The translations under genes were made by a program, and so were the position numbers. A DNA stretch of 64,000 bases, from contig OZ076409.1 in assembly GCA_964187785.1 (NCBI GenBank), forward strand, positions 42,286,001 to 42,350,000. Direction: 5' to 3'. The notes under the pieces were generated by a model that worked only from the letters and a program-made list of their open reading frames with translations, had not been told where the DNA came from and ran no database searches. The DNA comes from Amphiscolops sp. MND2022. Taxonomy: Eukaryota. Below are positions 6,695 to 62,900 of the stretch, piece after piece (the stretch's first letter is position 1; each line of letters opens with the position of its first letter).

Positions 6695-7715
6695 TGTCGG
6701 AACGGGTCTCATGTCCTATTGAGACCGTATTGAGATTGTTCCCTTCTCTATTGCTAGAGGAAATTTTCTCCGTGAGCGTCAGTACGAGATTTGTTAACTC
6801 TGTTATCTGCCTGTTCATCTCAGAGAACCTTTGATTCACAGACAATTGTTATGGACCATTTCTACTATGTAGTATGTTTCCGTCGTCGAATTCTCTAATC
6901 TGATCTCTGGTCAGTACTTCAGGAATGCTACTTTCGCTTTCAGCGTCGCTATACCTGTCTATTCCGTCCATATTCGTAGGTGTTTTCTTGATCGTCTTGG
7001 ATCTAGTATTGACCATAAATGAAGGTGCAAGAGTTTGAAGTTTTATTGGTTATTGTAGGTAATAAGTTGACAAATGTTGATGTTTAATATCAATATACTG
7101 ATGTAGTAAGCAACTGCACGTTTTAACTATCCAATTTTCTACTGGTGGTACTATATTGTCTGGTGTCAATTATGGCGACGTTGGTCACGTGACCACATCA
7201 ATCAATCATATTATTGCGTTCATTCACACCTGGGTTGGTAATTGCGCAATTTGAGTTTTGGTTTAACACTGCACTGGAATATAATGTACTTTCGTTACTA
7301 TGGTTACATGACTCACTAATTGGTATGTTCGCACAGCACTGCAATGTGGTTATGCTACCTACATCGTATGACTAGATGATTTTTTATATAAACGGTGGTT
7401 ACATGACTAACTGCATTGAATTGAAATCTGATGATGGCGTGTCAACTACATCATATAATGTGTCATGAAGGTGTTCTGGAAGGTACATGTAGCAAGTTTA
7501 TGATTATGGCTGCAGAATAGCAAAACTATTTGAAAAACTAAATATGAATGGTTTATGTGAAAGTTTTGAATTTCAGGTTTGACGATGCTGTTTGGTTAAC
7601 TACATTCTTTTCCTTCATCTATTCTCCCGTATCGTCTGTTGGTTTGTTTCGTTTTCTTGGATGTTGTGTAGTTAACCACATCTTTATTCGGTATTCTCAT
7701 GCATCAGGCATGACA
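6695..7715 (-). mobile_element. Solo LTR (Gypsy clade of elements A-C) carrying a Gag N-terminal ORF
   Basis: TG...CA termini, flanks GTGGT/GTTGT (5-bp TSD with one mismatch). Minus-strand ATG at 7016 gives MVNTRSKTIKK...RQITELTNLVLTLTEKISS...RSD up to the LTR end, with one internal TAA. Confidence 0.7.
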
Positions 7716-21201: not shown

Positions 21202-21490
21202 CCCTGGTCGAGAAAAAATGCGTTCCTTGCAAGGATCTTGCAAGATCTTTGTAAAAATGCAATTAATTGTACAATCTTGCAAGGAAATTTGTTCCTTGCA
21301 AGATCTTGCAAGGAAATGTTTTCCTTGGAAGATCTTGCAAGGAAATGTTTTCCTTGAAAGATCTTGCAAGGAAATTTTTTTTCTTGCAAGATTCTTGCAA
21401 GATGTCTTGCAGAAAAATGCATAATCTTGCAAGACCTTGAAAGAAAATCTTGCAAGATCCTTGCAAGGAACGCATTTTTTTAAACCAGGG
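21202..21490. mobile_element. 289-bp MITE built from TCTTGCAAG(A/G) motifs
   Basis: TIR CCCTGGT..AAAAAATGCGTTCCTTGCAAGGATCTTGCAAGAT and its reverse complement at the right end; TT flanks on both sides. Confidence 0.88.
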
Positions 21491-21738: not shown

Positions 21739-23629
21739 TGTTGGAACTGACGTTCCTATTAGTAATATTATTTCCTGAGATGTCCACGGGATCTGTATCA
21801 AGTTCGTAACGTAAGGCAGAACTACATTGTTCAGAAGCAGGGTTTGACAGACTGTCTATCATAGACGTAAGATTTTCAATTAGCCTTAAAATTTCTCTTT
21901 GTCCGAAATCAGTATCTCTCAGTCGTTTTGACAGACGGTTTTCAACCCTACTAGAAATGTCTTCGAAACCCTGTTCGGGAAGACTAGCATTTTCGTCATT
22001 CGGGTAATTATAATTCTCTATCTCTACCTGACTGGTACTTTGATCACTTCTCAATTTCTTTTTCTGGGTCTTTTCAGGCATTTTTAAGACTGTATTCTGG
22101 CCTGAAATAATCAAATTAGGTATTTTCTGGAGGTTAATAGTTCCAAGTTATTCCCAAGCAAACCAATGGACGAAACAAATAAAATCCAAACTTCGGACGA
22201 TACAAATTAAGCGATTATTAACAAACAATTAAAGTGCGCGACAAGTTTTAGAAAAAGTTATGAAAATAATATTCGAAATTGCACGTGAGCGGTTCGTAGA
22301 ATCACAAACTAAAAACTGGTCCTTTCCTTAACCCGCCTCAGATATATATATACTTTCCGCTAGACACGCGGGATAAATCCCGCGCGTGAATTCACACCTC
22401 GTTCAGCTCGGCGTCAATCCGAGGCAGGAAAGTCCAAATCAGGTCCGCTTCCTCGGGACTCGGCTTTCAGCGTCATCTCGTTTTAAAGGAAAAGTGGGAG
22501 TCAACTTCCTGCCGAAGTCCCGATTCCGCGTCGCTTCCTTCTTCGTTTCCCGCCAATTCAAGACGCCGAGCCAAAGTTGGCACTGGAAATTCATTAATCT
22601 AGCTACTGAAGCGGGAAAGGAAAATGAAATTTACATCCAATATTCCCAACTTTTACTAATAAACAAATCAGGAAAATACTTCGATATTGTAAATTAACAG
22701 CACTGATTTTCTTTTAATTAGACAATTATAGCCGTTAATCGATGTTTTAGGCTGAAACAAACAATTAAAATCCTGGATGAATGCCAGGCAACGCGTTTCA
22801 TTTGGGTCGTCTGGCCTGTTGACCAAGTGGTTGACTCAACTGTATTGAACTAAACGATGCATGTGGGGGTGAATAATAGCACTGAGGGGGTTTATTTCAC
22901 TATAATATTAACAATCGGTACGTCCAAAGAGGACAGCTTCGCAAATGAGATAACTAAAATTTTATATTAATCCAATACTCTTGGTCGCCTACCCAGGTTG
23001 TTGTTTTACTTGGAAAATTTAGCACGCTGCCTGGGAGGTCGACTCAAACACAAGGTTAATCAAATACATCGATAACACTCAATTATTATTAATTAGTGTT
23101 CATTGGATACTCTCTTGGTATTTGACTTCTTTTAAGTCGTGTAATTTCATTTAAAACTTAGCGTCGACTAGTTGCATCAGTATATTCAGGCAGTGCGACT
23201 GAGCGTGCGTCTCAGCTACAGTCGACTAGTATGCTGCCTGGGACGTTGACTCAAATTCACTAGTGGCTTCAACTGCGCTCAATTCTGATTGGTCAATACG
23301 GACTGAATTATTTAAAATCACTACTGCCGCTGAGGCAAGTCCCGAGTTGACGCGTTGATCGAATTAATTTCGGTCAGCGGGCTGGCTGATTGACTGAGCA
23401 AATACTGCGCTTGTTATTATTATATAATTATTTACATATCTATGTATTTCAGGCACGATGGTAGTAAATATACATTTACATGTTATTTAGATAATACTAG
23501 GTTGTTTGTTGGTTTTCCCTTTTTAGGTTTGTTTTGGCATTTCTGACCTACTCTGGTCGGTTTCCTTGCTTTCCTCCTCAGGCGTTCCTCTTACTGTTTG
23601 TATTCCGTGACACCTCTGGGGTCGCGACA
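21739..23629 (-). mobile_element. Solo LTR (1891 bp) of the same Gypsy clade, with Gag N-terminal ORF
   Basis: TG...CA termini; perfect TSD ATGAT (21734-21738 / 23630-23634). TATA-like tract at ~22343-22352. ATG 22081 gives MPEKTQKKK...GQREILRLIENL..IDSL, homologous to element C Gag N-terminus (GQREILKMIENL..IDSL). Confidence 0.9.
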
Positions 23630-23739: not shown

Positions 23740-25993
23740 TGTCACGACCCGCTCCCGGTCGGGATTATAGCTGCTGCAGTGGGATACCTGGTTTCGAAAT
23801 TGGCCGGGGACAAGGCCGAGGTAAACTCTATTAAACTAATTTTAAACTGATCTAAATTCTACTTACAGTACAGCGAAATCGATTGCAGATAATTTTCCAA
23901 ATGCAAAACCTAGCGTAAACGTTACGGAACACTTTTCAGAAATGATTTTTAGCTAAAACTTCCGGTCAATTATTCCCCGCGCGTGATAAGATTTTTCACT
24001 TCCGGTATGATCTTCTGATTTTCTGCCATACTAATCTAAACACTAAAATGAACATTTATAATTGGGATCATTCTTTCCACTGGTCCACACTAAAATGAAA
24101 ACATTAAAATAAAATTCAATTCCGAGATCCCAACGGAATTCATACAATCTAAAATGAAAAGGAACAGACAAATAATAGAGCGGAATTGTTTTCCAGAGAT
24201 GAAGTGGTTGTCAATATTCACTTAAAGCACAGCCAAGTGATTTAGGCAAATATTTACAACGCTATGGCAACGCCAATCTACTGAGCTAATATTAGGAATT
24301 TTGCTTCTACGGACCAATAACGTCACTCTATTGATAGAACTATTCTTAGCTAAGCTGAATAAAAGCAATTTTGGTTGCCCCTAGCAACACCAATTGAAAT
24401 AAGAGAGAGGGAATGAATTCACCTACGCACTCCGCTTTCTCTCCGCTTGATCTGATAGCTGAGCTATGAGCAACCTTAATACGTACGGGACAGCTACGGA
24501 GCGGATTGTAAAATTGTATTCCGCCGTTCAGCTATAACCAATCTTAATACGTACGGAACAACTCGTAAAATGATAGCGGTGAAGTATTAGTTTAAACCGA
24601 AATCAAATAAGGATTTTTCTGAATCGACGCACTTAATGAATTTTTGAAAACAAGTCCACATGTAAAAGGTTGTACTGTAAGAAAGGACTAAAATTATGTT
24701 CGAAGAGTAACGGTGCTATTGCAATAGTTTCTCAATTCACGCGTGCCTTACGTTACATTAAGAGTTTATGTATTCAGTGATTAGTTGTTTATCATTAAAA
24801 TGTTTCACAGAACGTAACGTAAGGTCAACGTCAAAACCCAAACCAAATGCTATTGATGCAGAATGCCTGCCCTGCCTATTCATATGCGATGCCCAATCGA
24901 GTGCAGAATAATTATTGCCTGCAAATACATTTCCTTTCCTATCTATTTGTACTTTGCAATTCGTATGTTACGTTATGGCCACGTATAGGTCAAAGTTAGA
25001 ATTTCTGTTGGTGCAGTTGTTTAGTTTACAAAATTAACCGTATAATCATCATTATGTTTTCTCTTAGCGTCGCTTGTTCCTCAATAATATTCAAATATCC
25101 GTAGTCCGAAATTCCTTTTGCCTCGTTTCAATTTCGTTAATTTTTGCGAGTCATTCTTTTACTTCGAATCTCAATCTCCCAAATTGAAAGTTGACTAATT
25201 GTTCATGCCGGCGTACTTACGCTGATGAATATGCAAGCTAGACGTTTATTTTACCGCGATTTTGAGACTTAAACAGGAAATGGGATTGCCTGAACAAAAA
25301 TGATTTCAACAAATTTACGGAACACTGACGCAACTAGGAATTTTGATGCCTGGTTTTTACGACGCGGGACTGAAATGATATGAATCATTAGCGCTTTTTG
25401 TTGAACAAACCCGATTTTTGTGATACCTAGGAATTTTTAGGTGAGGAACAAATGATGCTGGGAAAGTATAAATATGTAGTACATACATGTAAAGTTAGTT
25501 AGTTGTGTTTTGCAAGTTGTAATAAACTTAAACTGTTTTCGTTGTTTCAACGTTGAACAAAATCATCTTCGAAGAATTCATCTATTGCCGAAGAATCATT
25601 TTTTAACATTAAAAATGACCACTAGAAGCCAGAAGAGGAAAGCTGTAGCTGAATTAGTGTCTGGAGATTTTGAAGCTTCTTTAGCTGAAAATAACTCTGC
25701 TGAAAACCTGATACCCAGTTCTAGTAAAAATCCTAGACTTGAGCTTGAAAACCTGGAGGAAATAAAAACAACTCTGAGAAAAGAAATAATGACTGATCTA
25801 ACAAAGATATTAGCCGAAAACCAAAAGGAAATGCTTAAATTAATAGCACCAGCGAACAAGAAACGCTCAGTTAGTTCGAACATACAAGATTCTGATTCTG
25901 ACCAAGAAAACATCTCCGTAACGAGAACGTCCACTCCAGTCAAGACACAAACTGCGACTAGTTCTAAAACAACACCGGTCAATAGTCGTAACA
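23740..25993 (+). repeat. Element A 5' LTR (2254 bp)
   Basis: Direct repeat of 37733-39989. TATAAAT at 25467-25473 and AATAAA at 25521-25526. Confidence 0.97.
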
Positions 25994-27024
25994 TGGTGAC
26001 AGGAGTCCTCAATGATTCCACTAACCAACCCACCAAAAGACCGAAAACGCAACGTATACTCAACGAACAACAAAAAGACCGTCCTTCCACATCAAAGATC
26101 CTGTTCGCCCCACAACCACAGACATTCCCATCAACCGACCTACTTCCGATGCCGAAAGCACTCACTGCTTCGCTCCCAGTTTTCGATGGTAAGTCCGAAA
26201 AGTTTGAACTTTTTGAGGACCTATTCCGAAACAATATCAAAATGTATCCTCACCTAACCGAGATACAAAAGATCAACTACTTCCATTCACTCCTACGAGG
26301 AAACGCACTACAAGCGTTTTGTAATCTCGATGACACCAAAAAAGACAATCTAGAAGAAGTCATAACGGCATTTAAACGCCGCTTTGGTGATTTCCAATCA
26401 TCCGCTAAAGCGAGATGTGAGTGGGACGCCCTGCATTTTGACCCCACTAAACAGAAACTTCATGAGTTCCTTGACACCCTGCAAAAAACTGCGAAGGAAG
26501 CATTCGGCTCAGAAGCACAAAAATTCATTGATAAAGCAATCTACGCCAAAATGCCAGATCACGTCAAAAAGATCCTCAACAGAGCATATTTGGAAGATAA
26601 ACCCTACAATGACATAGTTTTACATCTTGAGAGGGAAATGAGATTAAACGGACTAGGTGCGCCCGATGAAACAACCCTAGTCCCACTCAACACAGTGGAC
26701 GCTGTAGTGACGGACCATCAAAAAGATCAACAACAACGAGGCCATTGCTTTCACTGTGGCAAATATGGCCACTACAAGGCACAGTGTCGCAAACTTCAAC
26801 GAGAACGTTATAATACAGCCAAAACAAACACAAAAGACCTAGCCCAAAACGAAGTACCCAAACCCAAGTGTGATACATGTGGCAAGATGCACAAAACTGA
26901 GAATTGTTGGAACGGAGCCAACGCAGCAAATGACCCCAGAAAGAAAAAACGAGAATTCACCATCCCAACCAACAAAATCAGTGAACAACCTGTACCCACC
27001 ACGTCCTCTCAGCCAAAAAACTAA
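25615..27024 (+). CDS. gag: Gag, starting within the 5' LTR
   Basis: First ATG at 25615 (the ORF track starts at an upstream TTG). Capsid-like LPVFDGKSEKFELFEDLF; zinc knuckles CFHCGKYGHYKAQC and CDTCGKMHKTENC. Confidence 0.93.
   Translation: MTTRSQKRKAVAELVSGDFEASLAENNSAENLIPSSSKNPRLELENLEEIKTTLRKEIMTDLTKILAENQKEMLKLIAPANKKRSVSSNIQDSDSDQENISVTRTSTPVKTQTATSSKTTPVNSRNMVTGVLNDSTNQPTKRPKTQRILNEQQKDRPSTSKILFAPQPQTFPSTDLLPMPKALTASLPVFDGKSEKFELFEDLFRNNIKMYPHLTEIQKINYFHSLLRGNALQAFCNLDDTKKDNLEEVITAFKRRFGDFQSSAKARCEWDALHFDPTKQKLHEFLDTLQKTAKEAFGSEAQKFIDKAIYAKMPDHVKKILNRAYLEDKPYNDIVLHLEREMRLNGLGAPDETTLVPLNTVDAVVTDHQKDQQQRGHCFHCGKYGHYKAQCRKLQRERYNTAKTNTKDLAQNEVPKPKCDTCGKMHKTENCWNGANAANDPRKKKREFTIPTNKISEQPVPTTSSQPKN
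25994..26006 (+). promoter_or_regulatory. Primer-binding site TGGTGACAGGAGT (probably tRNA-Leu)
   Basis: TGG directly after the LTR-terminal CA. One mismatch from the tRNA-Leu-type PBS TGGTGTCAGGAGT. Same 13-mer at 62076 (element C); TGGTGACAGG at 58079-58070 on the minus strand (element B). Confidence 0.8.
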
Positions 27025-27092
27025 AATCGCCGCGCCTACGATTTGGGGAAAAAGTAGACGCGAGGGCGTACACGATAGAGGACCCCCCAAAC
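27015..27092 (+). promoter_or_regulatory. -1 ribosomal frameshift signal (A_AAA_AAC plus candidate pseudoknot)
   Basis: AAAAAAC at 27015-27021, just before the gag TAA. The pol frame is -1 and open from here to ATG 27168. Stem CGCGCCTAC/GTAGACGCG; loop TTTGGGG can pair with downstream CCCCAAA. Confidence 0.8.
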
Positions 27093-30000
27093 AGGTATGA
27101 AGAAGATTTTTTAACTGAATGTAATGAAGAACCAACTCAAGACTGGCAACGCCGCTGGAACGTAGGCATGATACTCAGGCATAACGCCAGACATCCAGAA
27201 GATCCAACACCACTACCCCAGTGGATAACAGAATCGCCCGATAACTACGCGACACTCAAAAGACCGTTACCGGAATCAAAAACAGACCGAATTTATATAT
27301 ATGACAGAGACTACAGATGTGACCCTTGGGACGAACCAACCATCTATGATACAAATAAACTATCCTTCAAAATACAAGTCTCAAACCCTCAAGCTCAAAC
27401 CACGACGACCACAAACCTACCGTCACCGCCGTCACCAATCCTAAAAAGAACAACACCGTCCCCAACAGCACCCGTCACCGTCACGTCCACACCGATCGAT
27501 GCCGAAAACATCATATGCATTGAAGACAAAACAATATGGTCACGACAAGCAAGAGAACAGCGAGAAAACACCGCTTCGCTCTCGTCATCACCACAAACCG
27601 CGCCAGCCACAGCAATAGCCGCTGAAGACGAAGAAATAACGGAATGTCACCCAACACTACCAGAAGATCTAGATGTCATCAAAGAATTCATCCAGCACGA
27701 CAAGGAAGACGACTACATCCCGTTTATGTCTGCAATTGCCCTCAAGAAGAAAAAGAGAATGCTCTTCTTACCAATCGAATTCAACACTGTCAAAATCGAA
27801 GCCTTAGTCGACTCAGGTGCGTACATTAATGCTATTAGCGAAAGGGATGCTGAAAAACTCCACCAAAATGCGAGTCAATGCATTATTAACAAAGCACCTC
27901 CACCCCCTTTCAAAGTGCAATACGCCAATGCCGAACTAGAACAACCACTTGCCACGTACACTCTACGCTTCAAAATAGGAGATTACACTTTTGAAGAAAC
28001 ATTCATTATCATGAATCAAACGTCATTCCCCATAATTGGATTAGCGTTTCTACGAAAGCATGCCGCAATCCTTGACACGGCACAGGGAACCATCAACTTT
28101 CCCAAGATCCAAATCACGATGGCGCTCACAGACGAAAGACAAAAGTGCAATCCAAAACCCATCACGATAAAGACCGAAGCCAAACACACAATTCCAGCAC
28201 ACTCTACCCGAATCATATACGCAACAATCCCTGTGAGTACCGAACACTCAATAACGGGCACAATACAACCCCTACCACAATTCGATGAATGCGCGAAAGT
28301 AATAGTAGCCCCAGCGATTACAACAGCTAGAGATAAAAAGCTCCCAATTAAAATCGCCAACACCACGGATTTTCCATACACAATAGCCAACGACACCAAA
28401 ATGGCCGAACTGCAAATCCTGAAACCCGAAGAAACGAAGATGATCCGCCCAGTTGACATTGCTGCCCTGAATCTCCTCAATGACCATGACGATGTGGTCA
28501 CGTACATCAACGCACTAATGCAAGTAGAACGGCCAGAAGACAACGAAGAAAAATTCTGGTTCCCGACCCCAGATCACCCAGGCAACGAACAAGAACATTC
28601 GCCCATACAAAAGCGAATCCTGAAAGAACTGCGAGACCTTGCCGAATTAGAAAAACTTGACCCAACCGAAAACGAAGACTCTCGCAACAAATTTCTATCA
28701 ATGTTCAAATGGACAGACTCACTAATTACGGGCAAAGACCGTGAAAAACTTGAGGACACCATTGTTGAATTCAATGACATCTTTGCTCGACACCGACTAG
28801 ATATCGGGATGAATACACAGTTCAAAGTCAGCCTAACACCACAGGACGACAAACCAGTCTACACACAGAGCTTACCCGTCCCGATCAACCTCAAAGAATA
28901 CCTAACAGTGGAACTGGCACTGATGCACAAATACGGCATCATCACGACACTCCCCTTCTCCAAGTACGCCAGTCCTATATTTGCACAACGGAAACCCAAC
29001 GGCAAACTGAGACTACTGGTGGATCTGCGCAAAATCAACGCACTCATAGCAGATGACTACATCAACAACAACCACCCTGTCAGCACCCTCTCAGATGCGG
29101 CACAACACCTAGCAGGGAAAAAACTATTCTGCAAACTTGACTGCTCCCAGGCGTACCACTGCCTTCAAATGGCAGACCAAAGGTCAGTAGAGTTACTTGC
29201 TTTTAATTTTGCTAGTAGGACGTTCGCCTACCGTCGCCTGGCACAAGGACTAAGCAGAGCTCTATCAGCCTTTTCGAGCTTCATGCGTGAGTATCTGGAC
29301 TCAGTCATTAAAGCCGATCAATGTGCACAATACGTAGATGACATTGGCATTGCCGCAAACACAACGGAACAGCTCATAAAAAACATCAGAGCAGTCTTCA
29401 AATGCATCCGGAAAGCAGGACTAAAACTAACCATCGAAAAATGCCATTTTGGAGTAACCCAAATCGAATTTCTTGGACGAACCATCACCCCCGACGGAGT
29501 AGCCCCGCAAGATCAAAAAGTCAAAAATTTCCTCTCCAAAGTACGCTTCCCCAAATCCAAAAAACAAGTTCAAAAATACATTGGCTTTGTTAACTATTAC
29601 CGCAACTACATACCGCGCTTATCAGAAAAACTCATCGGCATGTACGAACTTCTTAAAGCAGACTCCAAGATCAGAATTTCAGAAGAACTTGTCGATAACT
29701 TTAAGGAAATCAACGCCAGTTTAGCGGAAGCTTGTGGACTCGCACTAAGACAGCCTATAGCAGGAAAACAGTACGTTCTAATGACGGACGCAAGCTTTCG
29801 TGCGTCAGGCTACGCCCTCATGATTGAGGAGAACGATGAACGCAAAATACTCTCCAAACGGAAAACCTTCGCACCAGTAGCGTTCGGATCACGAGTTTTT
29901 TCACCTGCACAACTGAAAATGTCTATCTACTGCAAGGAATTCTTAGCAATCTACCATGCATTCCTCGAATACAGCCACATACTATGGGAAGCAACAATTC

Positions 30001-32312
30001 CAACCCTGGTCTTAACAGACAACCGCTCAGTAACGAGATTCTTCCAGACCAAAACGACACCCCCTGCACTCTGGAATGCCTGCGACTATGTATTACAGTT
30101 CAAGTTCCGAATTATGCACGTAGCAGGCTCCCAGAACACAGCAGCAGATTTTCTTTCAAGACTTGAACTTACACCGAAAGAAAAGGTCCAACTTAAACTA
30201 CGAGACGACATACTAACGTCCCCAATTGAGGTCAATCTACAATCATCAGATGTAGCTGACGAAGAACAACTTTTCTTCCTACCTGATGACGAAGATGAAT
30301 CTGAACAAGAAATCTTTGCCCGAAAAGCACTCAGCAAACAACGCGCCCTAGACGAACATGAAAGAGAACTATCAACAAAAGTAACCGAAGTCATCAAGAT
30401 ACCACTCAACTCCGCAGTCTACTCCTTCGGCGCAATCAAAGAAAATGCACGGATCAGAAACGAACAAGATGCAGACCCTCTCCTCAAAGCACTGAAGCAA
30501 CGGATCTCACATGAAGAATATGACAAACACCTCCTCAAAACTGAACCACGAGGACGAAACCTATTACGCCACGAAGAAAGAATCATAATGAAGGATGGAG
30601 TTCTGATGCGGAAATACTACGGAGAAGACGGATCAGTCACCCATAATCAAATCATAATTCCGAAACACCTAGTCCCAGAACTCTTGGCCACTCTACATGG
30701 GAAAACAAATAAACATCCAGGAATCGCAAAAATGATACAAGAATGCAGAGCGAAATACTACTTCCCGGGTCTTGCACGTAAAATCAGAGCTTGGGTAACC
30801 AGCTGTCAAGACTGCATTGCCAATAAAAGAATCGACACAAGACAAATACGCCCCAAAATGCTAAGCAACACTGAATTCACAATGGGACCAGAAGACTGCC
30901 TAGAAGTAGACATTCTTCCAAACCTACCTTCCTCAAATGGATACCAACACATCATCACGATGATGGACGTTTTTTCACGTTACCTTTTCGCTTACCCGAC
31001 ACAGGACATGACAGCCAAAACAGTCGCACGATGCATAATAGACGTCATGACACGACACTGCTACCTGCCGACCGTCATTCTAACAGATAAAGGATCACAA
31101 TTCAGATCAGAAGTAGTCAATCAAATAACACAAACATTGGATATACGGATAAGCCACGCATCGACGAAACACGCTCAAACAATTGGCATCCTAGAAAGGA
31201 CTCATGCCTCTTTGAAAACCTCCCTAAAGATATCAACGGGGGAACGACGCTCTATGTGGCATAAATATGTCCAGATCGCAGTCATGAACTACAATACGAG
31301 CTATCATGAAAGCCTAGGTTGCGAACCTACAACAGTATTTCACGGACGCATTCCGTACAACATCCTAGACATAAAACTCGGATTGAAACCTGAATGGAAA
31401 AAAGATAACAACGAAGAACTGACGGATCAACTACAGAAGCAAATATCCGAAATACACCATGCCGCCAAAGAAAATCTAATGCAGTCCTACTTAAAGTACA
31501 AACAGTACTATGACAAGAAAGCAACAGCAACACCGCTCAAAGTCAATGACTACTGTTACGTCCTCAATCCGAAGGCAGACAACCAGTCGATGAAATTCGC
31601 TTTTAAAGATTGCATTTGGACTGGACCCTACATAGTAGTCAAAGTACTCTCGAACAACAACTACATCGTACGCCGCACGGGAACTAGATATACCCAAACC
31701 CTCCATAGAATTCGCCTAAGGCTATATGCGCCCAATCAGCGAGTACCTGACGTAACAGTCAGAAGGGAAGATTATCTTCCAGACCCAGAGGTTAAAACAA
31801 CCCACAATGATTGGTACGCGCAAGCTTGGGAAACCGAATTCGGAGAAGTTCTGTTCGGAAACAATACCGAAAACGCCGCAGAAGAAGCCACAGTTACAGA
31901 AATTGCAGACACAACAGGACGCAACGAAACTACAACGGGAAATGATGTGGTTAAAACAACCACCAATGAAAACACAGTGAAAAATGACGTGGTTCAAACA
32001 ACCACACACGAAGCTACAACGGAAAGCGACGTGGCTCAAACAGCCACAAATGAAAATACTGTAGCAGATAAAACACCTTCCGACAATATAACGTCATTTG
32101 ATCTAGATGTCAGCGATAACCCATATATTTTGACCCCACCACCGATACACAGCCCTCCCAAAACACCCGAATTACCGCCTATAGTCGTTGGATACAATCC
32201 TAGAAAAGTGGGACGATACAATTTGAGACCTAATCCGAGACCCAACGTGGACCCTGACTTCAGAATGCTAAACTCAACTACAGCGGACGATTTACGTCAA
32301 ACTCAAAACTAA
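27021..32312 (+). CDS. pol: Pol polyprotein (protease, RT, RNase H, integrase); first ATG 27168, likely made as Gag-Pol
   Basis: ALVDSGA protease; YVDD RT; TDAS RNase H; H-H-CxxC zinc finger, D-D-E core (LEVDIL, TDKGSQF, ILERTH) and GPY integrase motifs; Thr-rich tail. 1714 aa without stops. Confidence 0.97.
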   Translation, partial: LKSPRLRFGEKVDARAYTIEDPPNRYEEDFLTECNEEPTQDWQRRWNVGMILRHNARHPEDPTPLPQWITESPDNYATLKRPLPESKTDRIYIYDRDYRCDPWDEPTIYDTNKLSFKIQVSNPQAQTTTTTNLPSPPSPILKRTTPSPTAPVTVTSTPIDAENIICIEDKTIWSRQAREQRENTASLSSSPQTAPATAIAAEDEEITECHPTLPEDLDVIKEFIQHDKEDDYIPFMSAIALKKKKRMLFLPIEFNTVKIEALVDSGAYINAISERDAEKLHQNASQCIINKAPPPPFKVQYANAELEQPLATYTLRFKIGDYTFEETFIIMNQTSFPIIGLAFLRKHAAILDTAQGTINFPKIQITMALTDERQKCNPKPITIKTEAKHTIPAHSTRIIYATIPVSTEHSITGTIQPLPQFDECAKVIVAPAITTARDKKLPIKIANTTDFPYTIANDTKMAELQILKPEETKMIRPVDIAALNLLNDHDDVVTYINALMQVERPEDNEEKFWFPTPDHPGNEQEHSPIQKRILKELRDLAELEKLDPTENEDSRNKFLSMFKWTDSLITGKDREKLEDTIVEFNDIFARHRLDIGMNTQFKVSLTPQDDKPVYTQSLPVPINLKEYLTVELALMHKYGIITTLPFSKYASPIFAQRKPNGKLRLLVDLRKINALIADDYINNNHPVSTLSDAAQHLAGKKLFCKLDCSQAYHCLQMADQRSVELLAFNFASRTFAYRRLAQGLSRALSAFSSFMREYLDSVIKADQCAQYVDDIGIAANTTEQLIKNIRAVFKCIRKAGLKLTIEKCHFGVTQIEFLGRTITPDGVAPQDQKVKNFLSKVRFPKSKKQVQKYIGFVNYYRNYIPRLSEKLIGMYELLKADSKIRISEELVDNFKEINASLAEACGLALRQPIAGKQYVLMTDASFRASGYALMIEENDERKILSKRKTFAPVAFGSRVFSPAQLKMSIYCKEFLAIYHAFLEYSHILWEATIPTLVLTDNRSVTRFFQTKTTPPALWNACDYVLQFKFRIMHVAGSQNTAADFLSRLELTPKEKVQLKLRDDILTSPIEVNLQSSDVADEEQLFFLPDDEDESEQEIFARKALSKQRALDEHERELSTKVTEVIKIPLNSAVYSFGAIKENARIRNEQDADPLLKALKQRISHEEYDKHLLKTEPRGRNLLRHEERIIMKDGVLMRKYYGEDGSVTHNQIIIPKHLVPELLATLHGKTNKHPGIAKMIQECRAKYYFPGLARKIRAWVTSCQDCIANKRIDTRQIRPKMLSNTEFTMGPEDCLEVDILPNLPSSNGYQHIITMMDVFSRYLFAYPTQDMTAKTVARCIIDVMTRHCYLPTVILTDKGSQFRSEVVNQITQTLDIRISHASTKHAQTIGILERTHASLKTSLKISTGERRSMWHKYVQIAVMNYNTSYHESLGCEPTTVFHGRIPYNILDIKLGLKPEWKKDNNEELTDQLQKQISEIHHAAKENLMQSYLKYKQYYDKKATATPLKVNDYCYVLNPKADNQSMKFAFKDCIWTGPYIVVKVLSNNNYIVRRTGTRYTQTLHRIRLRLYAPNQRVPDVTVRREDYLPDPEVKTTHNDWYAQAWETEFGEVLFGNNTENAAEEATVTEIADTTGRNETTTGNDVVKTTTNENTVKNDVVQTTTHEATTESDVAQTATNENTVADKTPSDNITSFDLDVSDNPYILTPPPIHSPPKTPELPPIVVGYNPRKVGRYNLRPNPRPNVDPDFRMLNSTTADDLRQTQN

Positions 32313-32458
32313 ATGAAAACAATGAGCAGGCTAAACCGAACCGGAGTAGCTACGTAAAATTATCATCTAAACTAAAAAGAACAGCAACAAAGCCAAAATT
32401 ATAGTTCCTTCAGAATCATCAAAACATAATAAAAGTCTACAAATCATCACAACACAAA

Positions 32459-35400: not shown

Positions 35401-36367
35401 TCCACCTCAGAAATCAGATGACGACCAAATTGCGCCAAGTCAATCGGACTCAACGGAGTATTGCCGGGGAAAGCTAACACCTCCTCCTCCGCTTCTGGAT
35501 CACCTATAACAAACATCAAAACAATTAGGTGGACACACTATAGAATCCCGAACCACTCTGAGAAACCCAACCAGAAGACTAAAGTGAACAACTCTATACA
35601 AGCATTCTACAAAACAAAGAGAAGAGAAAAGAAAAGGATGGGGGAAAAAGAGAAACAACTAACTGCTCCATCCCTCTGCCATAAGCTCCTGTAAGCTAGG
35701 AGAATGACCACCTTGACGTTGCGGTGGCGGAGTCGAAAACTTCACAGCCCGCTCACGAGAACAACTTGGCTCCATGACATCGACAGTTGCAGTGCCCTCA
35801 TCATTTCTCCCTCCTCCACTTTCTTTTGGGGAGGCCGGAACGGCCTCGCCTCCACGAGGCTCACTAACAACAGCAGCATCCTGAAGCTGAGAACCAAATC
35901 CGGTGGCATCTCGCGAAATTCCAGTACTGACGTCGGGAGCCTCTAACAACGAAGAGGAACCAGGCTGGAAAGAAGCAGTATGTCCAGAACCAGCAAGAAC
36001 AGTCGTCAGCATAGCGTTGACAGAGGCAACCGGAAATGCCTCGGTAATGGAAGGGAGTCCCACGGGAACCAAAGAATGGCTAGCCTCCGTATGGGAGCTA
36101 AGCCCGGGCAGCGCAATGGGTTGAGTTACTGAAAATCAAGATCTGGTTCAGACGCGTCAGAGTTACGGGTAAGACTATAAAAGGCTGATCACCAAAAACA
36201 ATAGTCCTATTGCCCAGGAAGTCAGAAAGATTTTACCAACCCGAAGCAGAACGAGAAATATCGATGTCAGAAGGAACAACATCATCATCGGTGAAATTGA
36301 ATGTTGTCTCGTTTCCACTGACGAACCCTGCACCAGTACCAGCAGGAGGACCAGAATCACCATCCAT
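32459..36367 (-). CDS. Antisense spliced accessory gene, ~1070 aa, BED-like zinc-finger protein. Exons 36367-36241, 36128-35664, 35503-35372, 35264-34690, 34492-33872, 33751-32459
   Basis: Five GT-AG introns (36240-36129, 35663-35504, 35371-35265, 34689-34493, 33871-33752), each ending in a pyrimidine-rich tract and YAG. Phases 1,1,1,0,0 join into one 3213-nt reading frame. Motif FCRVC-x16-H-x5-H. The 3' introns have textbook donors; the start and 5' exons are less certain. Confidence 0.8.
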
Positions 36368-36429
36368 CCAGAATAACAACTCAAGAAATCTAAAACAAAA
36401 GGAAAAATCAAGAAAAACTATGCAAAGCG

Positions 36430-36957
36430 AACGTAAAAGACAAGAAAAGGAACAATAGCATCATTTCTACAGGAAAGAAAACCATCTATGTTCCAATTCC
36501 CATTTTTCCTTTTAAAAGCCTATTATGGCATTGACGGAACAAAACGTTTCCAAAAGTTGGATAAAAATCCACCAAGAAATGCTAAAGAAGAATTAAGAAA
36601 ATCATCAGGAGATCACGGAACATAGGCGTAATACACCAATGAAACTGTGTGACGTCATTACGCCATTAACCGAAAAGAGGACGGCTACTAGAATTAGAAG
36701 TTTTCATCAATTATTTCGACCAATCACAACGCAGTAAGAAAGAACTCGTTTCTTTCATTCCGAGACGCACCGAAACGAAAGCGGAAAAACCGACCAATAG
36801 AATTTCGTTAAAAATTACGAAGGAAAAGAATTTGAAACGTTCATTTGTCGTTCAATTTTCATAAAAGCTTGACCAGCATCTTCTGCCAAACTAATTCTCT
36901 GTGAACTAGTCAAAGAAGACATAAGCCAGAATCCTGCAAAATTTAATCCCTGCAATC
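36430..36957. promoter_or_regulatory. Candidate bidirectional internal promoter
   Basis: Lies between two divergent ORFs; TGACGTCA (CRE) at 36650-36657 and CCAAT boxes at 36636, 36720 and 36794. Confidence 0.5.
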
Positions 36958-37827
36958 ATGAACGGATACTCGTTGGTGATAGATATATCTTCCGACGAAG
37001 ATAATAACCGTTGCAGCACGCCGTTGAAGGCATTACCCCTCAACACGATCAGCACTCTTAGTGATTCGTCCACGGAAGCATTCCGTGGGAGTGAAGCTAG
37101 AACAGATTCAACATCCGAGTCTGACTGTTCTCCGAAAAAGCGCGGCCCTACCCCCAGCAAAAAGAAAAAGCTAGGGAGAGTAAGTTTTAATCTACCGCCA
37201 GCAGTAAACCCCGACTCAGATACCGACTTCTACGAAGAACCGGACACGCCACCGAGCCAGCCCCTAACAAGACCAACACCAGTCCTAAAAGAAAAAGCAA
37301 ACATTCCCCAATTAGGAAATGAAAGGGCTCCAAACACAGTCAAGCTGAATGACTTGAATGAGCCTTCGCTGGCAGATTTGGACGCACTACACGGCTTAGA
37401 TATAGAAGATCGGCAGTTTTTCGCAGCAGTTGGCCGTGGACGCACTCACTACGGCGCAAAAGAGAATGCCCCCCCTCCGACTAAAAGAGAGCAATGCATT
37501 TGTGCGTTAAGCGACCCTACTAAGCCGCCGGAAATATGCCCTATCGATACGATGCGAAGAGAACAGGAGCTTCGAGAAATGGAAGAAGAAGAAAGGTTCA
37601 TAACAAAAATGACTGCAGGAAGAGGACGTAGTCGCGGCACGCGGATTCTCAACGGCCGTCCCCCTGTCATCATCAGGAAAGAAATTCCCCATTGCCGAGC
37701 TATACCCTTGTCTCTTGCTTCAAGAGGGGCCCTGTCACGACCCGCTCCCGGTCGGGATTATAGCTGCTGCAGTGGGATACCTGGTTTCGAAATTGGCCGG
37801 GGACAAGGCCGAGGTAAACTCTATTAA
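36958..37827 (+). CDS. Sense accessory ORF3 (289 aa, mostly low-complexity), ending inside the 3' LTR
   Basis: ATG-initiated intact ORF. VIDISSDED (SIM-like), KKRGPTPSKKKK (NLS-like), repeated GRG. No signal peptide or transmembrane stretch, so not env-like. Confidence 0.7.
   Translation: MNGYSLVIDISSDEDNNRCSTPLKALPLNTISTLSDSSTEAFRGSEARTDSTSESDCSPKKRGPTPSKKKKLGRVSFNLPPAVNPDSDTDFYEEPDTPPSQPLTRPTPVLKEKANIPQLGNERAPNTVKLNDLNEPSLADLDALHGLDIEDRQFFAAVGRGRTHYGAKENAPPPTKREQCICALSDPTKPPEICPIDTMRREQELREMEEEERFITKMTAGRGRSRGTRILNGRPPVIIRKEIPHCRAIPLSLASRGALSRPAPGRDYSCCSGIPGFEIGRGQGRGKLY
37722..37732 (+). other. Polypurine tract of element A
   Basis: AAGAGGGG(CCC) immediately before the 3' LTR TG. Confidence 0.7.
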
Positions 37828-39989
37828 ACTAATTTTAAACTGATCTAAATTCTACTTACAGTACAGCGAAATCGATTGCAGATAATTTTCCAAATGCAAA
37901 ACCTAGCGTAAACGTTACGGAACACTTTTCAGAAATGATTTTTAGCTAAAACTTCCGGTCAATTATTCCCCGCGCGTGATAAGATTTTTCACTTCCGGTA
38001 TGATCTTCTGATTTTCTGCCATACTAATCTAAACACTAAAATGAACATTTATAATTGGGATCATTCTTTCCACTGGTCCACACTAAAATGAAAACATTAA
38101 AATAAAATTCAATTCCGAGATCCCAACGGAATTCATACAATCTAAAATGAAAAGGAACAGACAAATAATAGAGCGGAATTGTTTTCCAGAGATGAAGTGG
38201 TTGTCAATATTCACTTAAAGCACAGCCAAGTGATTTAGGCAAATATTTACAACGCTATGGCAACGCCAATCTACTGAGCTAATATTAGGAATTTTGCTTC
38301 TACGGACCAATAACGTCACTCTATTGATAGAACTATTCTTAGCTAAGCTGAATAAAAGCAATTTTGGTTGCCCCTAGCAACACCAATTGAAATAAGAGAG
38401 AGGGAATGAATTCACCTACGCACTCCGCTTTCTCTCCGCTTGATCTGATAGCTGAGCTATGAGCAACCTTAATACGTACGGGACAGCTACGGAGCGGATT
38501 GTAAAATTGTATTCCGCCGTTCAGCTATAACCAATCTTAATACGTACGGAACAACTCGTAAAATGATAGCGGTGAAGTATTAGTTTAAACCGAAATCAAA
38601 TAAGGATTTTTCTGAATCGACGCACTTAATGAATTTTTGAAAACAAGTCCACATCATGTAAAAGGTTGTACTGTAAGAAAGGACTAAAATTATGTTCGAA
38701 GAGTAACGGTGCTATTGCAATAGTTTCTCAATTCACGCGTGCCTTACGTTACATTAAGAGTTTATGTATTCAGTGATTAGTTGTTTATCATTAAAATGTT
38801 TCACAGAACGTAACGTAAGGTCAACGTCAAAACCCAAACCAAATGCTATTGATGCAGAATGCCTGCCCTGCCTATTCATATGCGATGCCCAATCGAGTGC
38901 AGAATAATTATTGCCTGCAAATACATTTCCTTTCCTATCTATTTGTACTTTGCAATTCGTATGTTACGTTATGGCCACGTATAGGTCAAAGTTAGAATTT
39001 CTGTTGGTGCAGTTGTTTAGTTTACAAAATTAACCGTATAATCATCATTATGTTTTCTCTTAGCGTCGCTTGTTCCTCAATAATATTCAAATATCCGTAG
39101 TCCGAAATTCCTTTTGCCTCGTTTCAATTTCGTTAATTTTTGCGAGTCATTCTTTTACTTCGAATCTCAATCTCCCAAATTGAAAGTTGACTAATTGTTC
39201 ATGCCGGCGTACTTACGCTGATGAATATGCAAGCTAGACTTTTATTTTACCGCGATTTTGAGACTTAAACAGGAAATGGGATTGCCTGAACAAAAATGAT
39301 TTCAACAAATTTACGGAACACTGACGCAACTAGGAATTTTGATGCCTGGTTTTTACGACGCGGGACTGAAATGATATGAATCATTAGCGCTTTTTGTTGA
39401 ACAAACCCGATTTTTGTGATACCTAGGAATTTTTAGGTGAGGAACAAATGATGCTGGGAAAGTATAAATATGTAGTACATACATGTAAAGTTAGTTAGTT
39501 GTGTTTTGCAAGTTGTAATAAACTTAAACTGTTTTCGTTGTTTCAACGTTGAACAAAATCATCTTCGAAGAATTCATCTATTGCCGAAGAATCATTTTTT
39601 AACATTAAAAATGACCACTAGAAGCCAGAAGAGGAAAGCTGTAGCTGAATTAGTGTCTGGAGATTTTGAAGCTTCTTTAGCTGAAAATAACTCTGCTGAA
39701 AACCTGATACCCAGTTCTAGTAAAAATCCTAGACTTGAGCTTGAAAACCTGGAGGAAATAAAAACAACTCTGAGAAAAGAAATAATGACTGATCTAACAA
39801 AGATATTAGCCGAAAACCAAAAGGAAATGCTTAAATTAATAGCACCAGCGAACAAGAAACGCTCAGTTAGTTCGAACATACAAGATTCTGATTCTGACCA
39901 AGAAAACATCTCCGTAACGAGAACGTCCACTCCAGTCAAGACACAAACTGCGACTAGTTCTAAAACAACACCGGTCAATAGTCGTAACA
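37733..39989 (+). repeat. Element A 3' LTR (2257 bp)
   Basis: Differences from the 5' LTR that I could see: a 3-bp CAT indel near 38655 and G/T at 25244/39240. Confidence 0.97.
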
Positions 39990-41197
39990 CTACTCAAGTA
40001 TTAAAAACTTTTAACGAACCATCATCCTTTTTCAATCATCAATGCTCTTGAAAAGCAACCTTTCCAAAGTTTGTGACGCAACTTTCGATAAAATTTCTAG
40101 CGCACAGCTGACTGAAATTTTTGGTGTTTGTGTTCTCTCGACCATCTTTTCGAAATCTTTCGATGAAGTCACGTTCGAAACGAAATTCGCTGAATATCTA
40201 ATTGTAACAACTGAATCAACTCACAAAACTTGAACCAAAAAAATATTCGACCCAACTTCTTCACATCCGAGTTCCAATGAAAGGAGCTCAAGATCGAATG
40301 AAAAGTGACGAAACTCTTCAAACGCTTGTCAATCATAAAAAGTTCGCGTCTCTTTGGCTGAACGTTTCAGGCTCAATTTCTGCAAGAAGCTTGATGATCA
40401 ACAGCTTTGATTTTCTATCAAATTGTTCCTCGGAGAAAACATCGGTATGACTCATCCTTGCCACAGTTGCAAAAGGTCCAACGGATTCTTTTTGAGTCTT
40501 TCTAGTAACAAAAGGTCAAGTCGTCTTGCTGATCCTAACCCTCTAACTAGGCAAAAGCTAAACTTTGAGAGTTGCCCTAAATGATGGAACCTTATGACTG
40601 TATCGAACTGACGGCCTGATTTTCAACTATTAGCGTTACTGTGGCCTTACTTTAGCTAGAAAAAAGGAACATGGTGTCACCAAGGGCAACTAAGTTGATC
40701 AGAAAATGAATATCACACTCGATGACGACGCGATAAATTTTGTTTGGGAAGAATCTAAGAAAAACCACACGGTGTAAGGAACGTGAACAACGATAGAAAA
40801 AGATGATGTCTTTCGGAGCAGTTTTTTGGTTCCTGTGATTGGATTATTGCTTTTCGCTACCAAAGCAACAAAGCAAGCAGTGAACATCGAATTGAACATT
40901 GAATTTTATTGGATTAATATACATGACATACATTAAGAGTATTCATAAATGTATACAAAATTCAATGTGCAACAAAGCAAGCAGTCAAAATAAAGTGAAT
41001 ACAAGGAAGGTAATTTTTAAGCAATCTGCCCCAAGTCAGAAAATGAATTAAATCCCGATTAAAGATAAGTCCTGATGATGAGCAACTAGATCGTTGTTCG
41101 AAACGTTTTCACATTTTTGTAATCTTTTGTATTAAACATGATGTTTGTTCAGTGAGTGTAACGTCACTTTCTAATATACGAGCTGCAGAAATTTGGT

Positions 41198-57030: not shown

Positions 57031-58712
57031 AGTCTTTTGGATTTTTAGGAACGGAGGTTGTAAGTTTGTTGGTGGAGTCTTCTCGACTCATGGTAGTTTC
57101 CTCAGATTTGGGGATATACAATTTGAGATTTTTGGGTTCGAGGTGTGCTCCGGCGCTTTTCCAACACCGTTCGCCGGGTAGTTCGTTTTGTCACAAATCG
57201 GGCACTTTGGGTACTCTTTCGTGGTAGACTGGCTTTCATTGCGTTTTGTTCCTCCTTTCGTTTGAGTTTTGACAGTCATCCTCGACATGTCCAGGTTTTT
57301 TGCAATAATAACATGACGTCCCTGGGTCAACACCCGATGAATGGAGGCCAGTACCCGGTCGTGTTGCTGTCTGTGCTGTTGACATTGTGGGAACGGGAAT
57401 GTCGGCACCTTCCTCAAGTCCGTTCAGTTTAGCGTAAAGCAGACTGTCAATCATCGCTTGTGCGTGTTCGCCAAAAGCTTTTTCAGCGCCCTGGTTAAGT
57501 TCTTTGAGGAAATCAGGCAGTTTCATGGTATTCGGATCAACAACCAATTTATGTCATTGGTGTTTGGCAGTTGCCTGAGACTCCGGTTTTACATATTTCT
57601 TGCGGAAGACTGCTAATATATCTTCCAGGGTTTGTCTATTTGCCGAATTGATATTGCGAAACGTCTGTAGCGCGTTTTTGCGCAGCAGCGAATAGAAATG
57701 GTTGATTTTCATTGTTTCCGTCATGTCCGGTTGAATGTTTATCATCGTGTGAAAAAAATATTCGAACAATTCGAATTTTTCAGCTTTGCCATCAAATGTC
57801 AGTGTGGTCGTACTGACTGGTCGTACCATCAGTGTTTGGTCTGAGTATTTTTTTTCGTTCCCACAATTACATCGGCAAGTTTATTTATGGGGTCTAATGT
57901 TGTTTCGGAGGGCACGTTCCGGTTGTTAGTAGGGACTAATGGCTGTTGCGCAGGGATGGTTGTATCTAGCGTGTCATTATTGATACCTTGTTGATGTGGA
58001 GTTTTATTTCAGGATTGAATGGACCCTCCGGTCGGAAATTCAGGGAACATTTGAGGGGTAAATTTGGCACCTGTCACCAGGACCAATTGCTATTACCCAT
58101 CATCATCACTTTAGTTAGAACCCACTGAATTCTCCCTACAGTGATTTTTTCGGTTACTACTCATTGCTAGTAATCTGGGAAAGTCTTTCTGAGCATCTTG
58201 AGCCGCTTGGCTAGCTTTTTCCAGGATGCAGTCCATTTGACTGAAAGTCCCTCTGAGGAGGTACTTGACTAAAATTATTCAGATGCGCTCCATCTGACCG
58301 AAAGTCCAAATTTGTATAACGGCCTCCTACAGCATTTTTGATGCTTGGTATCACCTTTCCCTCAATTGCAGAGTTAAATACGTCTAATATGTGTGAATTT
58401 AAGTCTTCTGTGATGTGATTTCTTTTCCTCAAACTTTCTAGACAATGATGAAGAATTTTTTGAATTGATTGCTCTACTAGTTTCTTCGGTCAAACCACTA
58501 TTCTCACTGAAATTAGTGTTTAAGTAATTCTGGTTCAATTTTTCTTCCTGTCTAGTTGACCTTCAGTCCATTTCGTTTTCACTATTCCTCTCTTGCACTT
58601 CACAGTTATCTCTTTGATAACTTCCGAGCATATCAAAATTTTCAATATCTGACATCACATCAGATTGTCTAGAACGCTTTTCCTTTGCTTTCTGCTTTCT
58701 AGTTGAAGGCAT
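57030..58712 (-). pseudogene. gag: Element B gag, starting in the 5' LTR (ATG 58712, MPSTRKQKAKEK), disrupted
   Basis: FDGKAEKFELFE, KINHFYSLLRKNALQ, CYYCKKPGHVEDDC, CPICDKTNY. Confidence 0.88.
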
Positions 58713-59910: not shown

Positions 59911-62900
59911 TGTCACAGCCACTTGAGCTGTGAGTATTGCAGCAGAATCAACCCAGTCTTCGAAGAATAAATTAGGAAATGGAAAAAGGAAAAATGAAAA
60001 CAGAAAACCAGAAAACAATCAGTTCAATCCATACAACCTGAAATAATGGCGCAAAATAATATAATAATTAGAAGAAATTATATATTAATATTTATGTAGT
60101 TATATATACTTACATACAGTGTACTAACCGGTATAAAGCTACTTGTGCAGTTAATAGTATTAATACGGTGCTATATAATTAATAGTAATACAATCACACC
60201 GCTCAGTAAGCGGCCTGAATGAATAATGGCGGAACTGCGGCCTGGCAGCCGGCCTGATATTTGCGCAGTGAAGCGGTGGCCTGGCGAGTGGCCTGAGAAT
60301 GAAAGTGCTACGAATCAATCTCTAACACTAATTATGCTATTTTGTGAATACATGTAAACCTGTTGATGCGTTAAACGAGTATTAGAACAACGTTATACAT
60401 GTAATTGTCCATATAAACAAGTATTGGAGCTAACTTTGAAATACCGATATACTGCGGCCCAGGACATGGCCTGAAATGTAAATCTATAAAATCCATTGTT
60501 GAAATGGAAATTGTTAATGTTAATAGTGATCTTTTCTGCTCCTAATGATCCTACCAATCAATGCCTGCAATCTCAAAAGATGCCTGAAGATAAAGAATGA
60601 AGTATGATGCTATTTTTACAGATAAACCATGTTCAAGTGCTAAATGAAGTAGACCGCGGCCTGAGACACGGCCTGAAATCTATTCTGACCAAATCCATCC
60701 TGGAATTGAAAATATCGATCCCCCTAACCATTTCTCCGCTCTCGCGAGGGAGCAGTGACGTAACACATACAACAGTAAGCGATAATGATTGATTGCATGC
60801 AATGTATGATGATTTTAACCATGTAAATGCAGTATTTAATTTGAGAACGCCAAGCCGCGGCCCAGACCTTGGCCTGGGATTAAATGTTCGATTTAATTTG
60901 TTTATTCTCCATAAATGATTTGTGTTGCCTTGTTTAGAGTCAATTTCCACTCAACTAGATTGGGAAGAGACTCGAACCGTATTTTCGAGTTGATTCTAAT
61001 CACTGAATTGTTTGTTGTTGATATAATTAATCATTATTTTTCGGGAAATGATTTTATTTTGCCTCAACCGTTCCAGACCTCAGCCTGGGACCGAGCTTTC
61101 CCATTTATACTCGAATTTGTGATTTTTAAGCTCTCATGAGTGAACTTTATGAGCTAATTTATATTTCTTATTAAATAATCATCTCGCTGTGCAATATTTG
61201 AACCAAATTAATTCGGGAAATTCTCATTTTCCCAATTTCCAATTTGTTGTTTTGTTCGATCATTTTGCTCTTTGGGCGTCCGCAGTGACTAATTTTTTTC
61301 ACACTTTGTTCAGTTTCGGCGTCTTGAAAAGGCGGGAGTTGGAGGTGAAGGGAAGCGGAGTCGCAACTCAGACAGGAAGTGGACGCGTGCTTTCCTCGGA
61401 AAGCATGAAAAAACTGAGAGTCTGAGTTCGACAAAGCGGAACTGAACTTCCTGTTTCTCCGCCTTGGAGGGACGCCGGGCTGAATGAAGCGTGAAAGTGG
61501 TGCGGATTTTTCCCCGCTTCACGTGGGTGAAAAGTATATATATGCTTGGGAAATTTAAACAATTTCAGATGATAATTTTGATAGTCTCTGAAAATTCAAT
61601 AACCGTTCTTTGTAAAGCAACTTTGTTTTCTCTTGTTACAAAACCCAATTGAAGATTAAAAATCTCAATCTTTCTTTATTTCTTGTCGGAAAGACCGAAC
61701 CTGTAAACTTGAAACCCAAAATGCCTGAAAGATCCTCTAAAAGGAAAGCCAGAAGGGATTCTGTATCCAGTTCATTAGGTGAACCTGAGGCAGCTAGCCA
61801 AAGGACTGAAAATGCACCCAGCATCTCAGATCGTGATTTCTCTGAAATCTCTGAAAAGATCGAAAAATCAGTTGGTAGAAGGATAAAGGACGCTGAGACT
61901 GGGCAAAGAGAAATTCTCAAGATGATCGAGAATCTATCCTCAAAAATAGATTCATTGGCAGGCCATCCGCCTAGGTCCGAAAATCCCGTAGTAGATTTCT
62001 GTGAATCTGAAAATCAAGCCTCAACATCAAGGCCAACCTTGATGAACGAGTTGCACCCATCTCAGGGTCAACACATGGTGACAGGAGTGTTCCCCCAAAC
62101 AGAAGTGCCGCGCCGATCATCAAGCCTACCGCCCCCCAACCAGAAATACCCGGACCACATAGTGGAAAAGCTACTAGAATCGCTAAAGAACGTAACCCAA
62201 CAAAATATCGGGCTCCCTAGACTGCCAAAAGCGATGTCAACAACAATGCCTACTTTCAAAGGTAAAAATGACACGTTTGAACACTTCGAAGACCTTTTTA
62301 TGACTAGCCTCAAAGTGTATCCCAACATATCCGAAGAAGAGAAAATACACTATTTTCATTCCTTACTCAGGGATGACGCCCTGCAGACATACCGCAATAT
62401 GACCGACACAAACCGTGCCAGCCTGGAGGACATCATAACAACCTTCAGACGACGATATGTCCGCCCCCAATCTATCGCAACAGCCCGCTGCAAATGGAAT
62501 CAGCTCTATTTTGACCCATCCCAACAAACTTTTCAAGATTTCTTGGAGCAGTATCAAAAACTGGCCCAAGAAGCATACGGAGATGACGCCCCCAAGTTCA
62601 TTGAGACCTCCTTCTACGCCAAAATGCCAACCCACCTAAAACGAGTGCTAAACCAGGCAAGGTTAGAAACTGAATCGTACGAAATGATGGTCGAACACCT
62701 AGAAAGAGAAATGGAGCTAAACGGACTGTTGGCACCAAACGAGAGCAACATAACAGGAGTGCACCAAATTGACGTGCAAGACCCACAACAAGCTCCGAAC
62801 CCCCCAAACCGTCAGGACCATGCTACGGATGTGGGCAATCCGGCCATGTTGTCAAAAATTGCAGAAAAGTAGCCCGCGAAGCTCGCAATCGGGGTAACAG

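Follow-up and report, generated by a model that had tools for sequence, protein, structure and literature searches.

Long terminal repeats of a Ty3/Gypsy clade in Amphiscolops sp. likely encode the N-terminal head of Gag

Long terminal repeats (LTRs) are, as a working rule, regarded as non-coding, and the gag gene of a Gypsy retrotransposon is expected to start after the primer binding site (PBS). Element A, a retrotransposon located within a 64,000-nt stretch of contig OZ076409.1 of Amphiscolops sp. MND2022 (GenBank assembly GCA_964187785.1, positions 42,286,001 to 42,350,000 of the forward strand; this whole stretch is referred to here as the window, and positions are counted from its first letter), appears to break this rule, as its LTR likely encodes the N-terminus of Gag.

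Among the described systems, Ty1 of Saccharomyces cerevisiae, a copia element with an initiator tRNA-Met primer, carries approximately 13 codons ahead of its PBS and employs a +1 frameshift. PMC4974528 places the Ty1 PBS inside the GAG open reading frame (ORF) at nt 94–104 of the RNA, so that fewer than ~30 codons precede it, and assigns the PBS segments of Ty3 to positions outside GAG, next to the 5′ untranslated region (UTR) and in the 3′ UTR. According to PMC10309623, most Ty3/Gypsy Gags begin with the capsid (CA), and the Gag of Cer1 of Caenorhabditis elegans has a long non-matrix N-terminal region with a predicted coiled coil, proposed to target particles, before a CA-like domain. As the LTRs measure 492 bp and nt 957 and 1175 still belong to the 5′ UTR in that account, Cer1 gag begins after the LTR. 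In open-access full text searched by phrase matching, no description was found of a Gypsy gag starting more than 100 codons inside an LTR, although Repbase, Dfam and GyDB may annotate such ORFs. The arrangement reported here is a variant of layout and not a new mechanism, being Ty1-like but belonging to Ty3/Gypsy and several times longer.

A gag frame that begins inside the LTR

Element A spans 23740–39989 on the forward strand and is bounded by LTRs that were 99.8% identical in a self-comparison, i.e. a 5′ LTR (23740..25993; 2254 bp, TGT...ACA, target-site duplication CTACT) and a 3′ LTR (37733..39989). In the same comparison, LTR identity was shown to stop exactly at 25993, and the 13 bases directly following (TGGTGACAGGAGT, 25994..26006) are complementary to the 3′ end of host tRNA-Leu(CAG), which was located by a genome pattern search and called by ARAGORN in one of six loci scanned. 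A polypurine tract (CAAGAGGGGCCC) precedes 37733. A sequence-only reading of the window had proposed that about 126 gag codons lie in this LTR and that the frame crosses the LTR end and PBS, and both statements were borne out. The complete gag ORF (25615..27024, forward strand; 469 aa, consisting of head, linker, capsid at approximately aa 182–344 and two zinc knuckles) is open, and since it begins at 25615 and LTR identity ends at 25993, the LTR contributes 379 nt, corresponding to 126 codons plus the first base (A) of the ATG at the junction. Across this junction (CA followed by TGGTGACAGGAGT) the frame reads N-M-V-T-G-V, the PBS itself supplying the bases for M-V-T-G-V. As in Ty1, the LTR end and primer site fall within the gag frame, whose ATG precedes the end of the LTR. 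In contrast to the short Ty1 stretch, 103–216 codons are involved here and hold a whole selected structural element, and unlike in Ty3, the PBS is located inside the gag frame.

The pol frame (26985..32312, forward strand, −1 frame) encodes protease (residues 197–303), reverse transcriptase (RT; 608–773), RNase H (840–973) and integrase (1164–1333), in the order found in Ty3/Gypsy, and matched Ty3 RT with an E value of 1.5e-24. Element A is a Ty3/Gypsy LTR retrotransposon (Metaviridae). Membership of Ty1/copia (Pseudoviridae) was rejected, as the order protease-integrase-RT-RNase H is absent and integrase comes last, while neither an env nor a matrix (MA) family was detected on the ORFs scanned, setting the element apart from Retroviridae and env-bearing errantiviruses. 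A slippery heptamer, A AAA AAC (27015..27021, forward strand), just before the gag stop is predicted to direct a −1 frameshift into pol; Ty1 thus differs from element A in class, in primer (tRNA-Leu here) and in the direction of the slip. The heptamers at or just before the gag stop differ by family (A AAA AAC, G GGT TTT or T TTA AAC), which suggests a conserved −1 frameshift. The pol frame was also observed to carry ~250 Pro/Thr-rich residues before the protease (26985–27740), which is unusually long for Gypsy.

The junction without a spacer (CATGGTGACAGGAG) was found in 7,527 copies in the 1.07-Gb genome, compared with six copies for a version with a one-base spacer and one for a reversed control. 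When the first 100 junction matches on contig 1 were examined without any selection, the upstream gag frame was free of stops for 90 or more codons in 76 of them, as against one and none for the other two frames, and the LTR-borne open frame is therefore not due to chance. Sequences open on both sides of the junction (n=55, i.e. 53 loci plus elements A and C of the window) fell into 12 clusters, with heads of 103–216 codons once three sequences with truncated starts had been dropped and one had been corrected. M-V-T-G at the junction was invariant across 23 full Gags that are 24–75% identical to that of element A; in Pfam searches, zf-CCHC was recognized in 14 and Retrotrans_gag in 8 of these 23. 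A profile search returned, among its best 150 relatives, 31 with an internal M-V-T-G-like motif and 12 starting at such a motif, and one of ten clusters of relatives that were looked up was named, as a zinc-knuckle repeat protein. The proposal that a long protein-coding U5 is a hallmark of the clade was thus upheld in part: the coding stretch characterizes the tRNA-Leu clade in this genome, whereas its designation as U5 was not established (see below).

Four further heads had been indicated in the window, and all five window heads have intact homologues at other sites of the genome. That of element C (61721..62075, forward strand) was as described, with an ATG at 61721, 118 codons, H-M-V-T-G-V and a frame open to the LTR end; the LTR begins at 59911 and the primer site follows the head. 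A search of the following 20 kb revealed no 3′ LTR of element C, whose LTR end is placed by the primer site. Element C is interrupted by an opposite-strand gypsy-like element (L137–L138, window-equivalent positions 66900–80800, reverse strand), which carries an extra 863-codon ORF downstream of its pol. The solo LTR at 21739–23629 (target-site duplication ATCAT) also matched its description, with a 114-codon head starting at ATG 22081 (21739..22081, reverse strand) that is open past the LTR end and continues into the flank; it and element C represent sister families. For the remaining two, homology held but an intact ORF did not: the 107-codon head of the solo LTR at 6695–7715 (ATG 7016; 6695..7016, reverse strand) has a premature stop after codon 55, and that in the 5′ LTR of element B (ATG 58712; 58094..58712, reverse strand) is broken by a stop after 49 codons, is spread over three frames and has an altered LTR/PBS junction, while the copy in the 3′ LTR of element B starts with ACG. 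Read-through for these two is seen only in intact relatives elsewhere (L060, L075 and L090 for element B; L037 and L097 for the solo LTR).

Selection on the LTR-borne head and its translation start

Codon-level conservation across LTR families was checked with codon models in all families with three or more members, and purifying selection was found in 8/8. Values of ω for the LTR part ranged from 0.047 to 0.198, with ω=1 rejected (2ΔLL of 81–452), compared with 0.011–0.055 for the capsid-containing core. Counting methods yielded non-synonymous to synonymous ratios (pN/pS) of 0.21–0.43 in frame versus 0.94–1.77 in shifted frames. Since these sets had been picked for open frames, the test was repeated on 70 family-A sequences (the window and 69 unselected loci) in a nucleotide-only alignment. 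Heterozygosity at the first, second and third codon positions of the head was 0.23/0.16/0.44, whereas it was flat in U3 (0.20/0.23/0.24) and in the leader (0.36/0.30/0.33), and the periodicity excess of the head was matched by none of 20,000 permutations. The strongest signal was that of a predicted helix (0.17/0.06/0.42), near that of the capsid (0.09/0.04/0.39). Codons 1–14 already show the periodicity (0.10/0.09/0.38), linking the constraint to ATG 25615. A net indel length divisible by three was counted for the head in 25/28 copies, compared with 1/30 for U3; this result was given little weight because all 25 are +3 and probably derive mostly from one inherited event. The protein-like conservation of the stretch indicates that the repeat likely encodes the real N-terminus of Gag.

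That Gag starts at or after the junction, the upstream frame being a by-product of RNA constraint or a non-translated relic, is scarcely tenable. Moderate structure is predicted for the R-U5 RNA (z=−2.3), in line with such a constraint, but RNA structure yields neither variation specific to third positions nor ω far below 1 in eight families, and the ATG-free leader described below ends exactly at the upstream start.

The TATA box proposed at 25467 (25467..25472, forward strand) was supported, being kept in 58 of 62 family-A copies (71 sequences minus eight poorly aligning loci and one duplicate), and ATG 25615 was kept in 60 of these. A TTAGTT with its A at 25497, i.e. TATA+30, which we take to be an initiator-like motif, lies within the predicted U3/R border (25491..25505, forward strand) and is followed by a predicted 118-nt 5′ leader (25497..25614, forward strand) devoid of ATG. 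Across 52 starts from all families, the 100 nt upstream contained three ATGs, compared with 68.6 expected from base shuffles. Family A is mosaic, and of 30 sequence pairs that share U3 and differ in the leader, 25 switch at 25491–25505 (the window and locus L140 at 25497), a cluster to which stronger promoter constraint also contributes and whose pairs are mutually non-independent; two reciprocal pairs switch at 25486. An underpowered search of other families retrieved two pairs with breakpoints near a TATA. We infer that first-strand transfer, or a parent whose two LTRs differ, connects U3 with R at 25491–25505. Based on the conserved TATA, the ATG-free leader and the recombination breakpoints, the RNA likely starts near 25497 and 25615 is probably its first AUG. 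A 10-base palindrome (TCTTCGAAGA, 25567–25576) was noted in the leader and is present or slightly varied in 12/12 family-A leaders compared, the rest of which is very variable around it; it is a candidate RNA dimerization or packaging signal.

The AATAAA at 25521 did not survive as the poly(A) signal of the family, as it is found in only 9/62 copies. For this reason, assignment of the coding stretch to U5 is plausible but unproven, and part of the head ORF could lie in R.

On the basis of these sequence features, the stretch is likely translated as the N-terminal head of Gag, from 25615. Transcription would start ~30 nt past the TATA box, near 25497, and the ribosome would scan the ATG-free leader, initiate at 25615, decode the LTR end and PBS like any other codons and then stop at 27024 or slip −1 into pol. 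Given its position after the RNA start and ahead of the PBS, the head would form part of a minus strong-stop DNA of ~500 nt, would be duplicated into both LTRs in each round and could be recombined with another U3 promoter at the RNA start. The same 13 bases would have to serve both as template for tRNA-primed synthesis and in translation, a conflict that work to date has addressed chiefly in Ty1.

Several observations weigh against this reading. The codon-model and counting sets, besides having been picked for open frames, were protein-aligned, and both effects are controlled in family A only. Neither the indel counts nor the breakpoint pairs represent independent events. No conserved poly(A) hexamer was found between 25300 and 26000, the best being present in 16/62 family-A copies. 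A sharp recombination hotspot between head and body at the PBS was not borne out, as the right-hand breakpoints of 44 pairs with head-versus-body swaps are spread over 25879–25981 and the rank correlation of adjacent windows shows no dip at the PBS (0.73–0.76); a clean exchange of head against body at the PBS is only weakly supported. The head has no recognizable relative in Pfam and its best ESM Atlas value was 0.75, so that its function is addressed by analogy only. Finally, by classical Kozak criteria the context of the junction ATG is the better one, with a purine at −3 in 38/52 sequences, compared with 26/52 for the first ATG, and always a G at +4, for which reason some leaky initiation there is possible and may give rise to a minor head-less product.

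A stronger version of this last point, compatible with initiation at 25615 yet making the junction ATG functional, proposes two starts, 25615 for full Gag and 25993 for a head-less capsid-nucleocapsid form with a role of its own, reminiscent of the internally initiated Gag product that Ty1 makes. The Kozak context speaks for it, as does the in-frame position of the junction ATG in 100/100 junctions, the latter by construction. However, the junction Met is forced wherever an LTR ending in CA meets a PBS beginning with TGG without a spacer, while the codon preceding the ATG is free to vary (GAC 53, AAC 23, CAC 17 and TAC 8 of 102), and in-frame Met codons within the head (aa 59 and 73 in element A) would catch leaky ribosomes earlier. 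A dedicated second start is accordingly considered unlikely.

The head protein and the coding capacity of 3′ and solo LTRs

The LTR-encoded head of element A (25615..25993, forward strand) was predicted to consist of a basic tip (aa 1–10), a helix (aa 44–77) and a disordered linker. The basic segment followed by a helical stretch, as proposed from sequence, was supported in 11 family representatives, of which ten are net basic in the first 15 residues and all contain an amphipathic 33-mer, counted with no shuffled control. Of the long stretches of the head, the amphipathic helix (25744..25845, forward strand) is under the strongest constraint, with a second-position heterozygosity of 0.057. 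AlphaFold, supplied with a 25-sequence alignment, returned one confident helix at 44–77 (core predicted local distance difference test score, pLDDT, ~90), low confidence for residues 1–42 and 81–177, and capsid helices at 182–344 (mean pLDDT 56). The best Foldseek matches of the capsid were the PNMA2 and Arc capsids, with E values of 2.5e-3 to 2e-2 and none at or below 1e-3, a weak but consistent result that likens it to Ty3-, Arc- and PNMA2-type Gags. A complex prediction with three copies of aa 36–86 scored 0.15 (mark, 0.32).

In the place occupied by matrix in retroviruses, the head would thus present a basic tip, a single amphipathic helix and a linker that is disordered. By analogy with Cer1, the helix most likely forms a coiled coil at the particle exterior that serves in oligomerization or targeting. 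Cer1 is similar in being an animal Gypsy element whose Gag has an N-terminal predicted coiled coil ahead of the capsid, but differs in its tRNA-Pro primer and in a multi-helical N-terminal domain that is common to a spliced CERV protein.

The repeat holds a quarter to a third of Gag, and pipelines that split LTR from internal sequence consequently truncate the protein, while LTR dating or alignment involves codons under selection. Moreover, every 3′ or solo LTR contains, together with a promoter and an ATG, more than 100 stop-free codons aimed into host DNA. For example, the copy of the head in the 3′ LTR of element A (39611..40051, forward strand) extends through 20 codons of host DNA to give 146 aa. 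Of the first 30 family-A starts, 13 belong to 5′ LTRs, the PBS being mutated in two of these, and 16 to 3′ or solo LTRs, with one unassigned; 15 of the 16 3′ or solo copies were open through the LTR end, with products of 127–183 aa. Genome-wide, 1,411 intact head starts versus 658 junctions were counted for family A. Both counts would be in keeping with selection for a free LTR-encoded peptide, accessory or controlling copy number, made from 3′ and solo LTRs and fused to Gag incidentally. This explanation is nonetheless very improbable: no stop codon occurs at the LTR end, so that the ends fall randomly in the host flank, the gag phase is kept in all 12 clusters, and starts exceed twice the junction count only slightly, indicating that most non-5′ copies are young 3′ LTRs.

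A 289-codon sense ORF (36958..37827, forward strand) continues through the polypurine tract and terminates 95 nt into the 3′ LTR. It matched no Pfam family, yet it is conserved: most of 135 scored genome matches are stop-free, down to 60% identity, and among 18 diverged loci 16 have a long ORF, of which 15 end 29–34 codons inside U3 in the same phase. Its pN/pS was 0.33 in the internal part and 0.49 in U3. Analogues are found in nef of human immunodeficiency virus and sag of mouse mammary tumour virus, which are ORFs overlapping the 3′ LTR, and in a V-clade fish element whose pol overlaps an LTR (PMC11117352). Those frames overlap U3 only, whereas in this clade conserved frames run across the two LTR junctions of a single element, as the 289-codon ORF crosses the polypurine tract into U3.

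A more far-reaching interpretation would regard the LTR as an exchangeable protein-coding module at both ends. A strong-stop DNA of ~500–780 nt would carry the coiled-coil head, which every strand transfer would combine anew with promoters and capsids, the 3′ and solo LTRs, in their thousands, would express the head with random host tails, acting as dominant-negative copy-number regulators or as N-terminal exons for host chimeras, and U3 would supply the C-terminus of a second accessory protein. Taken as a whole, this scenario is judged quite unlikely.

Related arrays and other features of the window

At G000:C13:16.508–16.558 Mb (L016–L019 and L258–L261), four to five copies of element A are arranged head to tail at a spacing of ~13.96 kb and apparently share LTRs. 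Matches to the tRNA-Leu 3′ end number 992 genome-wide, of which one dispersed copy was called tRNA-Leu(CAG); hundreds are located in a tandem array at G000:C8:35.59–35.64 Mb, and the same tRNA primes this clade. Within the window, near-perfect long inverted repeats at 8902–9130, 11673–11838 and 21202–21490 are probably miniature inverted-repeat transposable element-like or fold-back elements, and positions 1–2557 contain a BEL/Pao-type pol fragment in which RT, RNase H and integrase motifs were recognized by eye.

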